7,318 bases of DNA, from positions 1 through 7,318 of IMG/VR virus record IMGVR_UViG_2531839446_000012. One strand, 5' to 3'. Positions 3,474-6,312 of this stretch are shown here, one piece after another (the first letter of the stretch is position 1; every line of letters starts with the position of its first letter). Made by a program: the position numbers and the translations under genes. A model generated the notes under the pieces. That model was given only the letters and a program-made list of their open reading frames with translations. It had not been told where the DNA came from and did not search any database. Source of the DNA: a virus. Taxonomy: Duplodnaviria > Heunggongvirae > Uroviricota > Caudoviricetes.

Positions 3474-3500
3474 AAAAAAAAGGCCGCGCCATGCGCAGCC
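3474..3500 (-). terminator. Rho-independent terminator (minus strand) between the membrane ORF and nanS-p
   Basis: Minus-strand RNA GGCUGCGC-AUG-GCGCGGCC (8-bp GC-rich stem, one G-U) followed by U8 (reverse complement of the A8 run at 3474-3481). Confidence 0.6.
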
Positions 3501-3701
3501 GGAAATAAAGGGATAACGATGATAGTTTGAGAAAAACAGAAATAACACTTTTGTGGCAAAGCATGGTGCCGGGTGCCTCCCGGTGAATTCAGTACCAGCA
3601 CCTGAATCCGCGATTATCCCATATACCTACTCGCTGATTGCCCCTCCGCACAGGGGGATTCACCATGCAGAAGTGTTTTTAATAAACAGCAAACAAAAAA
3701 A

Positions 3702-3869
3702 TCAAGCATTATGCAGGCTGTTTCTTTTTATCACCGGCCACAGCAATACCACAATGCCGCAGACCAGCACCCCATCCGCCAGCACCGACATGATTCTGCT
3801 GGTGAAATCCACCATCACCACCAGAAACAGCAGGAGTGCAGCCACAGTCAGGCGCAGTTTTACCGTCAC
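3702..3869 (-). CDS. Small hydrophobic membrane protein (55 aa, two predicted TM helices), translationally coupled to the TerB-like gene
   Basis: Not in the ORF track (GTG start, under 60 aa). The GTG at 3869-3867 overlaps the TerB-like stop as GTGA, with GGAG 10 nt upstream. Product MTVKLRLTVAALLLFLVVMVDFTSRIMSVLADGVLVCGIVVLLWPVIKRNSLHNA. Same strand and operon position as its neighbour. Confidence 0.35.
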   Translation of the reverse strand: MTVKLRLTVAALLLFLVVMVDFTSRIMSVLADGVLVCGIVVLLWPVIKRNSLHNA

Positions 3870-4298
3870 AGGTGATTCTCCAGACGAAGACCCAGAACAC
3901 CGGCAATCTCTTCCAGCACCTTGCGCTCTTCCGGCTCAATTTCGCCGTCTGCCTCCGCAATGGCCACCGCCACATCCAGCACATCTTCCGCTTCACGCGT
4001 ATCGTGTTTCACATCCTCGATCTCACGTAACGCCGCACGACGACCAATTTTAAAGTTCGTATCCAGCTGACCGATAATGGTTGCGCTAATCGCATTAATT
4101 TCTGACGTAAACGCGGACAGCGCAGGCTGATTACGCAGTACCTGTTCGATCTTCGCTTTCTAGGAAGCCTCACATTCACCATCTGCACAGGCCACCAGGT
4201 ATGCGGCGTTAATCACCACCTGTGCCAGATCGCGTTTTTCAAACTTTTTAATTTCCGTTGCCGCTCTGCGGGCTTTTTTTACCAAAAATACCAAACAT
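3866..4298 (-). pseudogene. TerB-like (tellurite-resistance TerB domain) gene carrying a +1 frameshift and an in-frame amber codon
   Basis: ATG at 4298-4296 with AAGGA SD gives MFGIFGKK, then the frame breaks in the A7 run (plus T7 at 4274-4280). The downstream frame reads ARRAATEIKKFEKRDLAQVVINAAYLVACADGECEAS*KAKIEQVL...DVLDVAVAIAEADGEIEPEERKVLEEIAGVLGLRLENHL, with TAG at 4162-4160. The two ADG...E..K repeats are the TerB signature as recalled. Removing one A restores a single frame. Confidence 0.7.
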
Positions 4299-4430
4299 CG
4301 TGACGTTCCTTTGGGTGGGTGAGCCAACGCCCGGAAGCGATCTGCCCACAGAGAAAGTCACACTGACCACTCCGTAAGCTCACCCCCGAAAGGCTCTGTG
4401 GTTGATATGCACCGGGCGTGGCGCAGATAC

Positions 4431-4455
4431 AAAAAAGGCCCGCCGAAGCGAGCCT
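4431..4455 (-). terminator. Rho-independent terminator (minus strand) 12 nt after tRNA-Arg
   Basis: Minus-strand RNA AGGCUCGC-UUCG-GCGGGCCU (8-bp stem, UUCG tetraloop) followed by a U5-6 run. Confidence 0.65.
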
Positions 4456-4467
4456 GGAAAATAAGTG

Positions 4468-4544
4468 TGGCGCGTTGTAGTGGAGTCGAACCAGTGACCG
4501 ATTGCTTAGAAGGCAATTGCTCTGTCCGGCTGAGCTAACAACGC
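4468..4544 (-). tRNA. tRNA-Arg (anticodon UCU), phage argN/argO-like
   Basis: Hand-folded cloverleaf: acceptor GCGTTGT/ACAACGC, D-arm GCTC...GAGC, anticodon stem ATTGC/GCAAT with loop CTTCTAA, T-loop TTCGACT, discriminator G, encoded CCA. One C-C mismatch in the T-stem. Confidence 0.8.
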
Positions 4545-4644
4545 AGAATACCGATAATGGACCGCCATCGGGGACCCGCCCCCGCACCAACAACCCTGTT
4601 ATGGTGTCGTCTGCTCTTCCTGATAAGCTAATGGCGGTATGTGA

Positions 4645-4720
4645 TGGTGGCCCTTGCTGGATTTGAACCAGCGACCTGGCGATTATGAGTCGCTCGCTCT
4701 CACCACTGAGCTAAAGGGCC
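4645..4720 (-). tRNA. tRNA-Ile2 (anticodon CAU, ileX/ileZ-like; formally could be tRNA-Met)
   Basis: 76-nt cloverleaf GGCCCTTTAGCTCAGTGGTGAGAGCGAGCGACTCATAATCGCCAGGTCGCTGGTTCAAATCCAGCAAGGGCCACCA: 7-bp acceptor, T-arm GCTGG-TTCAAAT-CCAGC, anticodon loop CTCATAA. Very close to E. coli ileX as recalled. Confidence 0.85.
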
Positions 4721-4769
4721 GGGACCAGAATAATAATGGTGCGAAATTAATTCTGCAATCTCATCCGTT

Positions 4770-5820
4770 TCAAACGATTAAATCCTGAACTTCCCTGACT
4801 GTCTGCTCAAAACGTTCAGTCTCCAGCTCAACGCCAATTGCACGACGCCCGAGCGCCAGTGCCGCTTTTACCGTTGAACCTGAGCCCATAAAAAAATCTG
4901 CAACCAGGTCACCCGGACGACTGCTTGCGCTGATTATCTGCTGCAGCATTTCTGCCGGTTTTTCGCACGGATGTTTCCCGGGATAGAACTGCACCGGTTT
5001 ATGTGTCCACACATCCGTGTACGGCACCTGCGCCGTCACACCAAAATACCGCCGCAGATGCTTATATTCACTCTGCAGCTCCGCATACTGTCGGTTCAGA
5101 GAGGCATACGTATCCACCAGCTGGTGGTGGGGCTTTTCCAGTTCACCCCGCTGATGCTTCTCTTCTGCCACCCGGGCAAACAGTGCCTGTAATTTCAGAT
5201 AATCGCTTTCGTTCGGCAGCTGCCACTGACCGGCACTGAACCAGTGCGACACCATGTTTTTCTTTCCTGTGGCATCTGCAATCTGTTTTGCCGTTATCCC
5301 CAGGACAGCGCGCGCATCACGAAAGTAAGCAATCAGCGGGGCCATCACATGCTGTTTCAGTGCCCTACCCTTCGCCTCATACCCGGCATCTTTCGGACGA
5401 TACGGCCCCTGATAATGCTCTGCGAACAGAATGCGCTCTGTGGCGGGGAAATACGCCCGCAGGCTTTCCTTGTTGCACCCGTTCCAGCGTCCGGACGGCT
5501 TTTGCCCAGATGATATGGTTCAGCACGTTAAACCGCTCACGCATCATGATTTCGGTGTCAGATGCCAGACGATGGCCACAGAACAGGTAAAGACTTCCGG
5601 CAGGTTTCAGCACCCGCCAGAACTGCGCAAGACACTGGTCCAGCCACTTCAGGTAATCTTCATCACCCGCCCACTGGTTATCCCAGCCCTCGGGTTTCAC
5701 TTTGAAGTACGGCGGGTCCGTGACTATCAGGTCAACAGAATTTTCGGGTAACGACCGCATAAATTCCAGGCAGTCGGCGTTGATTAACTCACAACTGGAT
5801 ATTTTTACAGTATTAAGCAT
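4770..5820 (-). pseudogene. Orphan DNA N6-adenine methyltransferase (beta class, N6_N4_Mtase family), split by a +1 frameshift as given
   Basis: N-terminal ORF 5377-5820 has motif IV (DLIVTDPPYF) and NHIIWAK; C-terminal ORF 4770-5348 has HPCEKP and motif I (DFFMGSGST). After WAK the N frame becomes Arg-rich junk, while the +1 frame continues plausibly (PSGRWNGCNKESLRAYFPATERILFAEHYQGPYRP...). Break is at the T4 run 5500-5503 (expected T3). No restriction enzyme gene nearby. Confidence 0.7.
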
Positions 5821-5852
5821 GGATCATTAAGCCTGTCTCTGATAGGCTCATT

Positions 5853-5871
5853 CTGCTTTTGCGCAAAGCAG
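5853..5871 (-). other. Stem-loop (7-bp stem, 5-nt loop) in the MTase leader
   Basis: CTGCTTT (5853-5859) pairs with AAAGCAG (5865-5871); no U-run follows. Confidence 0.3.
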
Positions 5872-5912
5872 TGGGCCTGAGGTTTGCTTGTGAACCCAAC
5901 GCATGAGCAGAT

Positions 5913-5943
5913 GGCTGGTGGGTGCCCCTTACACCCACCAGCC
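5913..5943 (-). other. Perfect 12-bp inverted repeat with 7-nt loop in the MTase leader
   Basis: GGCTGGTGGGTG (5913-5924) and CACCCACCAGCC (5932-5943) are exact reverse complements; loop CCCCTTA. No U-run on either strand, so not a canonical terminator. Confidence 0.4.
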
Positions 5944-5960
5944 GCCCATTTACCACAAAT

Positions 5961-5984
5961 AAAAAAGCCTTCAGGACTGAAGGC
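5961..5984 (-). terminator. Rho-independent terminator (minus strand) overlapping the stop of the small wHTH ORF
   Basis: Minus-strand RNA GCCUUCAG-UC-CUGAAGGC (7-8 bp stem) followed by UUUUUUAUUU. Confidence 0.6.
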
Positions 5985-6168
5985 GTCTGTAACAACCAAA
6001 CTGATAGTCTGCCAGACCCGCCATAACCAGCTGGGTCAGTATTAACTGGCAGCGTTCGCGTGAAAGGTAAGTATTCTGCGCAATCTCCCCGACTGTCGCC
6101 GGGTCGGTAACGCTTAATTCATTAAACACCACTCTGGCGGTTTCTGTCATATCCTGCTGTTTCAGCAT
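5971..6168 (-). CDS. Small winged-helix/HTH DNA-binding protein (65 aa), function unknown
   Basis: Internal ATG of ORF-track entry 5971-6291, product MLKQQDMTETARVVFNELSVTDPATVGEIAQNTYLSRERCQLILTQLVMAGLADYQFGCYRRLQS; the N-terminal extension is rejected because it crosses the upstream terminator and looks non-protein-like. HTH-like segment TVGEIAQNTYLSRERCQLILTQLVMAGL; weak SD AAGGG upstream. Confidence 0.45.
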   Translation of the reverse strand: MLKQQDMTETARVVFNELSVTDPATVGEIAQNTYLSRERCQLILTQLVMAGLADYQFGCYRRLQS

Positions 6169-6291
6169 GTCTTTTTCCCTTTTCCGGTTAACGTGACACA
6201 CCAATAACTCTTGTCGAAAAAGCCAGCAACCTGAAAGAACGGTATTAATAACCACCAGCGAATTTATTGCGCTGCTGTATATTACGGACAC

Positions 6292-6312
6292 AAAAAAACC
6301 ACCTTCCGGTGG
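6292..6312 (-). terminator. Weak intrinsic terminator (minus strand) about 100 nt downstream of Q; tR'-like position
   Basis: Minus-strand RNA CCACC-GGAA-GGUGG (5-bp GC stem, GNRA loop) followed by U7 (reverse complement of A7 at 6292-6298). Confidence 0.4.

Follow-up and report, generated by a model that had tools for sequence, protein, structure and literature searches.

In the lambdoid phages lambda, 21, 82, and 933W, the Q cassette consists of the Q gene, the late promoter PR', a sigma-dependent pause element, the terminator tR', and the late genes, with a short leader RNA of the 6S/StxS type; in its published layout the pause element is a -10-like sequence lying between PR' and the terminator (10.1101/651190). 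Late genes, including the Shiga toxin (Stx) genes, are transcribed from PR' via antitermination of tR' (PMC7547250), and the region past the Q-antiterminated PR' tolerates morons and carries small RNA (sRNA) genes (PMC4104026). Such a moron slot is known from Stx phages and from enterohemorrhagic Escherichia coli (EHEC) Sakai (prophages Sp10 and Sp5; Tree et al. 2014), where it holds the tRNAs ileZ/argN/argO, stx2AB or tciAB as cargo, the sRNA STnc100/EcOnc27 with convergent AgvB/AsxR, and nanS-p. Here we describe four intrinsic terminators (T1 to T4) in a 7,318-nucleotide stretch of viral DNA (IMG/VR record IMGVR_UViG_2531839446_000012, positions 1 to 7,318; hereafter, the window), which spans the region from Q to nanS-p in a decayed lambdoid prophage of E. 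coli and has its genes of interest on the minus strand. DNA matching the window occurs in hundreds of lambdoid phages, Stx-converting ones among them, and in thousands of E. coli prophages. The terminators, in order of transcription, are as follows.

6292-6314, minus strand: T1, AGCCACC-GGAA-GGTGGTT; hairpin at 6297-6314 and seven-T run at 6292-6298 (5 to 7 T, depending on stem pairing)
5961-5984, minus strand: T2, GCCTTCA-GTCC-TGAAGGC, then T6ATTT; hairpin at 5967-5984
4430-4455, minus strand: T3, AGGCTCGC-TTCG-GCGGGCCT, then T6; hairpin at 4436-4455
3474-3500, minus strand: T4, GGCTGCGC-ATG-GCGCGGCC, then T8; hairpin at 3482-3500

The window resembles the lambdoid cassette in several respects: a Q homologue adjoins a promoter-like site about 40 to 55 nt past the Q stop, an open reading frame (ORF)-free leader of about 76 nt ends at an intrinsic terminator, and late and lysis genes lie downstream on the same strand in relatives. 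It differs in that its Q is of the DUF1133 branch, whose relationship to Q21 is distant and seen by profile only, in that its promoter has no TG, and in that no Hfq-bound leader RNA is reported at the equivalent site of Sp10. Compared with the Stx/Sakai moron slot, the order of tciA/tciB, STnc100, and nanS-p is the same, and the cargo is tciA/tciB, not stx. We consider it probable (about 0.82) that the window is a lambdoid late-regulatory and cargo segment, in which T1 is the regulatory terminator after Q, T2 to T4 are the ends of inserted units, and Q provides read-through.

Under this reading, RNA polymerase starting at a constitutive Q-proximal promoter would stop at T1 when Q is absent and would produce only a short leader RNA. 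Once Q has loaded at the promoter-proximal pause, the polymerase would ignore T1 and all later hairpins and would continue through the cargo and nanS-p in the direction of the lysis genes. T2 would end the 65-aa ORF, T3 the tRNA-Ile2/tRNA-Arg unit, and T4 the STnc100-family sRNA; in the lysogen, these three would confine local transcription to its own unit and would reinforce T1 in keeping stray transcription out of the lysis genes. We infer promoter activity, termination efficiency, and Q-dependent read-through. Q21 blocks the formation of terminator hairpins irrespective of their sequence (10.1101/651190), and processive antitermination bypasses ordinary terminators, with only unusually long stems resisting (PMC10325885); the stems of T1 to T4 are short (7 to 8 pairs).

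Four hairpins and the Q-proximal cassette

The initial annotation had reported four intrinsic terminators in series on the minus strand. We confirmed all four at the positions given there, each a GC-rich hairpin directly followed by a U tract, with 7 to 8 contiguous pairs, 4 to 7 G-C pairs, a loop of 3 to 4 nt, and 6 to 8 consecutive T. The energies of the T1, T2, T3, and T4 hairpins were -12.4, -9.1, -14.0, and -14.0 kcal/mol, respectively, and the same four hairpins formed when folded in a 46-nt context. A generic terminator scan called T2 to T4 in the minus orientation, detected the T1 stem only as a plus-strand site, and overall did not exceed chance (11 sites versus 8.0 +/- 3.1 in shuffles). 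Under strict criteria (a stem of 6 or more contiguous pairs with 4 or more G-C pairs, a 3- to 6-nt loop, and 5 or more consecutive T immediately 3' of the stem), the window contained exactly T1 to T4, all on the minus strand, and the plus strand had no site. In 2,000 dinucleotide-preserving shuffles of the same strand, strict sites averaged 0.05, the maximum was 2, and none reached 4. All four hairpins share an orientation and lie at 3' ends: T1 after the leader, T2 on the stop codon of a small ORF, T3 13 nt past tRNA-Arg, and T4 after the sRNA body. T1, T3, and T4 are intergenic, and T2 overlaps a stop codon.

The features around T1 were drawn, like those elsewhere in the window, from the ORF list, Pfam, PHROGs, a tRNA search, and Rfam, with comparative analysis as the only source of the two promoter-like sites described below (the PR'-like site and that of the tRNA cluster).

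6410-6940, minus strand: gene of a Q-type antiterminator of the DUF1133 family, 176 aa (PF06576, E 6e-110; PF06530; PHROG 753)
6374-6402, minus strand: predicted PR'-like late promoter, -35 TTGCTT (6402-6397), 17-bp spacer, -10 TTGAAT (6379-6374)
6363-6368, minus strand: TAAGCT, a -10-like hexamer and candidate sigma-dependent pause element, 5 nt past the -10
6292-6367, minus strand: predicted leader transcript of about 76 nt, with a predicted start near 6367 and its end at T1

The protein encoded directly upstream of T1 matched PF06530, the Q21-type family, at 35.3 bits (cut-off, 26) and PHROG 753, "anti-termination protein Q-like". A single-sequence search of the PDB placed Q21 on top with a weak E value of 0.15, and the family profile was required for a clear match: a profile of 27 relatives aligned with the Q21 structures 6P18/6JNX (crystal and cryo-EM chains) at E 1.5e-6 over most of both proteins. 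A published HHpred survey takes the same view of the DUF1133 protein as a Q homologue (PMC8136144). Judged by these profile matches, the protein is a Q-family (Q21-family) antiterminator homologue. Its gene is intact in the window and 99% identical to many copies; RefSeq labels the product merely "DUF1133 family protein".

Next, we looked into whether T1 keeps its place across relatives. We collected 111 related loci, which reduced to 57 distinct Q-downstream sequences with Q identities of 50 to 100%. A hairpin with a U tract began 94 to 133 nt (median, 102) past the Q stop in 53 of these 57, against a same-strand background of 0.39 such elements per kb; one of the four exceptions was a window-type hairpin with a single stem-breaking substitution. 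The stems at this position were wholly different among subfamilies (AGCCACC.., AACCCGC.., GCCCGAGG.., and GACGCG..), and RNAalifold found nine pairs in the T1 hairpins, four of them with compensatory changes. Across 82 loci, the density of sense-strand terminators was 2.9 per kb in the first 500 nt past Q and 0.6 to 0.7 per kb from there to +2.5 kb; in the 1.5 kb before the Q stop, it was at most 0.05 per kb.

Of the sigma-70 matches from the Q stop to T1, the PR'-like site is the strongest, and it held a fixed position in all 53 T1-bearing distinct relatives, which have TTGnnn at -35, TTnAAT at -10, usually a TG, and a spacer of 17 bp (51 relatives) or 18 bp (two relatives). TAnGCT, a -10-like TAnnnT hexamer, stood at the exact offset of 5 nt past the -10 in 48 of the 53, and one more had TATCCT there. 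In lambda, a -10-like hexamer likewise follows the -10 by 5 nt, the same spacing as in the window. By analogy with the cassettes of lambda and phage 21, we infer that TAAGCT would act as a pause-type element; a Q-binding element could not be assigned in the window cassette. The predicted leader measured 66 to 87 nt across relatives, the ORF list has no entry within it, and an 80-nt leader sequence, terminal hairpin included, folded at -34.7 kcal/mol (z = -4.9). This layout agrees with that of the published Q-dependent cassette (10.1101/651190). These results indicate that T1 is probably the tR'-type regulatory terminator of the Q cassette and not a divider between cargo modules.

HnrS (EcOnc10-12), a 66-nt prophage "late gene" sRNA, was considered as a candidate for the RNA that T1 or T2 would end. 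In Sakai, its coordinates (Tree et al. 2014, Table S2) place it past the Rz gene on the opposite strand, and it is therefore unrelated to the T1 and T2 RNAs.

The units ended by T2, T3, and T4

Downstream of T1, the window carries the following features as far as nanS-p.

5971-6168, minus strand: 65-aa ORF, phrog_331 (a 198-nt hypothetical coding sequence in the annotation of the relative L002)
4770-5820, minus strand: N6/N4 DNA methyltransferase gene, PF01555 on both halves, split by a frameshift
4730-4758, minus strand: promoter-like site of the tRNA cluster, -35 TTGCAG, 17-bp spacer, -10 TATTAT, ending 9 nt before the tRNA
4645-4720, minus strand: tRNA with CAU anticodon, ileZ type, annotated as tRNA-Ile in relatives
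4468-4544, minus strand: tRNA-Arg (UCU), argO type, found by the tRNA search and Rfam
3866-4294, minus strand: tciA, TerB-family pseudogene (PF05099, PHROG 632) with an internal stop
3702-3869, minus strand: tciB, DUF3927 small membrane protein gene (PF13064, PHROG 1470)
3525-3697, minus strand: STnc100-family sRNA body, Rfam RF02076 (101.5 bits versus a gathering score of 47, E 7e-22)
1537-3387, minus strand: nanS-p type sialate O-acetylesterase gene (DUF1737-SASA-DUF6645), the conserved gene 3' of the cargo slot

The same units recur in described phages. The Stx2a phage LC567834 shares with the window the 65-aa ORF with an identical T2, the methylase gene, and the tRNAs, all upstream of stx2A; a T3 variant lies between its last tRNA-Arg and stx2A, and stx2AB occupies the slot that tciA/tciB hold in the window. 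Unlike the window, it has a different Q with its own tR'. Sakai Sp10 shares a DUF1133-type Q, a T1 variant, tRNAs, an identical T3, tciA, STnc100, a T4-type hairpin, and nanS-p; it differs in carrying AgvB1 and a further sense terminator before the holin gene. On NC_002695.2, the Sp10 elements map to 1940642-1940669 (T1 variant), 1940970-1940995 (T3), 1941890-1941913 (STnc100 terminator), and 1942006-1942033 (T4 type). Phage 434 (GenBank OL657226) has tciB, an STnc100-like region, and the SASA esterase gene in the same order, with the T4 homologue and the post-Q hairpin annotated as terminators, and differs by a Q82-like Q and by having neither the methylase nor the tRNA module. The methylase gene, the tRNAs, and tciAB vary in presence among otherwise collinear relatives, as morons do. 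When we asked which units have both a promoter and a terminator of their own, the tRNA unit had both by prediction and the 65-aa ORF a terminator only, and for the methylase gene alone and tciAB alone neither was evident.

T2 overlaps the TGA stop of the 65-aa ORF. It was found in 14 of 17 distinct variants, and the remaining three had a single stem change each. The methylase gene that follows is frameshifted by a one-base insertion near 5500, beside a short T/C run, when compared with the otherwise 100% identical intact gene of L002; the extra base may be either a genuine mutation or an error of sequencing. In the methylase leader, a 12-bp hairpin with no U tract (5913-5943, minus strand; GGCTGGTGGGTG / CACCCACCAGCC) is kept in relatives with wobble-preserving changes, and two more small hairpins come after it. 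In some relatives, homology ends exactly at the 5' arm of this hairpin.

T3 begins 13 nt after tRNA-Arg in the window. Of 33 distinct tRNA clusters, 20 had a T3 that began 13 to 17 nt past their final tRNA, and every T3-bearing cluster was of the ileZ-arg type. The promoter-like site before the cluster was present at the same position, as TTGnnn/17/TAT(T/C)AT, in 14 of 15 distinct upstream contexts, among them some in which the spacer has diverged or the methylase gene is missing, and also in Sakai Sp10, where the tRNA cluster directly follows the T1 variant. Given the conserved promoter-like site and T3, the tRNA cluster looks like an autonomous promoter-to-terminator unit by prediction. A literature search on ileZ/argO terminators returned nothing specific. 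In Sp10, the 65-aa ORF and the methylase gene are absent, and the U tract of the T1 variant runs straight into the tRNA promoter-like site (L116, 6143-6210), with a -35 TTGCGG formed at the junction. Homology breakpoints between the window and its relatives cluster at 4425-4449, that is, at T3; other clusters are at 6325-6349, 3675-3699, 3550-3574, and 3375-3399, which include the sRNA and nanS-p borders.

The internal stop of tciA (4160-4162) is common to L002, where the gene is annotated as a pseudogene. Past tciB, the STnc100 match in the window does not include the family's own 3' terminator hairpin, of the GCCCCTCTCCGGAGGGGC type, the corresponding model positions being deleted. In most relatives, STnc100 ends at this hairpin, which it has in common with the convergent AgvB gene, and a T4-type hairpin comes about 100 nt later. 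The window and phage 434 have neither this bidirectional terminator nor the AgvB anti-sRNA gene, whereas most relatives, including Sakai Sp10, have both; the STnc100 body of the window therefore runs into T4. When 3474-3697 was compared with the relatives L019, L013, and L003, the window/phage 434 type looked like the product of a deletion of about 120 nt or of an alternative junction.

T4 stands 94 nt upstream of the nanS-p start codon, and a T4-type hairpin was located 94 to 106 nt before nanS-p in 13 of 29 distinct relatives. In a MAFFT alignment of the sRNA region, T4 was not aligned with the T4-type hairpin of the AgvB-bearing relatives, and we judged their relationship from the hairpin sequences and the distance to nanS-p. 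The curated record of phage 434 labels its T4 homologue "terminator". These results indicate that T4 is the 3' end of an STnc100-family sRNA gene variant. The EcOnc27 northern probe (Tree et al. 2014) is very similar to the 3' part of the L013 STnc100 region, and this similarity links the family to an Hfq-associated RNA of about 235 to 247 nt that has been detected experimentally. Several weak Rfam hits, far under their gathering scores, were set aside as noise: asX2 at T4 (plus strand), P26 at 5880-5944, Plastid-ycf2 on a tRNA, and a second STnc100 over T3.

The initial annotation had described the terminators as separating the cargo modules. T2 to T4 end inserted units, T1 is regulatory, and there is no terminator between the methylase gene and the tRNAs or between tciB and the sRNA. 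The initial annotation had also proposed that each module would depend on Q-modified transcription or on individual promoters. Since T3 ends a tRNA unit with its own promoter-like site and T4 is an sRNA 3' end, the second branch probably applies to the tRNA and sRNA units; for the 65-aa ORF, the methylase gene, and tciAB, no separate promoters were found by the generic scan.

Flanking features of the window

Two further features frame the region described above.

7308-6949, minus strand: rusA, the first gene in transcription order, followed by the DUF1133 gene
85-1420, plus strand: ISEc48, an insertion sequence (IS) of the IS3 family, beyond nanS-p

The late and lysis genes lie outside the window, on the far side of ISEc48 from nanS-p; this IS is missing from the closest E. 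coli genomes. It is missing also from the relative L002, in which nanS-p is followed on the same strand by genes for holin, lysozyme, and Rz1, with two extra sense terminators in the gap ahead of the holin gene. A perfect direct repeat of 16 bp (CGCATATTGATAATAT, at 69-84 and 1421-1436) borders ISEc48 on both sides and is present as a single copy in L002. Elements of the IS2 group usually make duplications of about 5 bp, and the 16 bp seen here is far longer than expected.

A perfect -35 hexamer, TTGACA, lies on the plus strand at 1438-1443, 18 nt from the end of ISEc48, and a plus-strand terminator with an 8-bp stem and T7 lies at 1497-1537; an equivalent terminator is annotated in the phage 434 record. 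Together they could delimit a small RNA, about 60 nt long, that converges with nanS-p. The sRNAs PasA/PasC have been reported in the esterase-holin gap, where this candidate RNA would sit (10.64898/2026.05.13.724894). A base-composition profile across the window revealed no sharp module boundaries.

Competing readings and biological meaning

The Q homology, the position of T1 as tR', the variable genes between the terminators, and the lysis genes downstream in L002 support the view, put forward in the initial annotation, of a Q-gated late operon extended by morons. Several observations weigh against it. The PR'-like site of the window is weak, matching 7 of 12 consensus positions and having no TG, which most relatives have; a generic promoter scan did not flag it and predicted zero minus-strand promoters within 2355-7318. 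The same scan of the minus strand gave no convincing separate promoter for the 65-aa ORF, the methylase gene, or tciA/tciB. T2 is the weakest of the hairpins (-9.1 kcal/mol). No Hfq-bound RNA is recorded at the equivalent leader of Sakai Sp10 (Tree et al. 2014, Table S2), which counts against an Hfq-dependent sRNA role only and not against termination. Finally, this copy is decayed, with a frameshifted methylase gene, an internal stop in tciA, and ISEc48 between nanS-p and the lysis genes, and the circuit may therefore no longer operate in it.

These same observations bear on how else the hairpins might be read. That they are chance palindromes beside T runs, or functionless relics of a dead prophage, is very improbable: the decay of the copy and the generic scan, which overall did not exceed chance, would fit such an origin, but four strict sites were found where 0.05 were expected, none of the 2,000 shuffles reached four, and Q is an intact gene with 99% identity to many copies. 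Moreover, all four positions are conserved across many relatives with stem-preserving changes, and this positional conservation excludes a chance origin of the hairpins. A more serious candidate is a set of four independent constitutive units (leader RNA, small ORF, tRNAs, and sRNA), self-contained morons with their own promoters, to which Q read-through would be irrelevant. The conserved promoter-like site directly before the tRNA cluster, the presence or absence of modules independently of each other among relatives, and the detection of STnc100/EcOnc27-type RNAs in uninduced EHEC cultures (PMC4104026) all favor it. We nevertheless regard it as possible rather than probable, since a minus-strand promoter-like site was not found for the 65-aa ORF, the methylase gene, or tciA/tciB, and since all four terminators stand before nanS-p and the lysis genes, for which no other route of expression is evident. 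In Stx2 phages, furthermore, T2 and T3 precede stx2A, whose late-phase expression reportedly needs PR' and Q (PMC7547250). The idea of independent units complements that of a Q-controlled late segment and does not replace it.

It is unlikely that the hairpins serve mainly as stabilizers of RNA 3' ends or as chaperone-binding ends of sRNAs, with the T1 leader StxS-like, the T4 RNA an STnc100-type regulator, and insulation secondary. The PR'-tR' leader of Stx phages is a functional Hfq-binding sRNA, StxS (PMC7547250), the leader block is highly conserved, and T4 closes a strong Rfam STnc100 match; yet T2 comes after a protein gene and T3 after tRNAs, neither of them after an sRNA, and no peak from Hfq cross-linking and analysis of cDNAs is listed at the DUF1133-type cassette leader of Sakai Sp10. 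The T1 stem sequence turns over freely while its position is kept, and a terminator role therefore fits better than a specific seed or binding role. Slightly more doubtful still is the proposal that the leader of about 76 nt may be a constitutive, StxS-like, trans-acting regulatory RNA of non-Stx prophages, in which the strongly conserved 5' block, TAAGCTTCGCAAAGCTGTATCGCGAGGCGA, would be used for Q loading as well as for pairing with targets.

Read as parts of a Q-controlled late segment, the four terminators are ordinary punctuation of the late region of a lambda-like prophage, and the architecture is already known and of the textbook kind. What the analysis clarifies is an annotation, namely, that the "DUF1133 family protein" of this locus is a Q-type antiterminator by profile homology, and the four hairpins would explain why the cargo, nanS-p, and the lysis genes are silent in the lysogen. 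Because the Stx2a phage has near-identical T2 and T3 in the stretch from Q to stx2A, their strength could affect basal toxin expression, an idea that extends established Stx-phage biology and is not a new mechanism.

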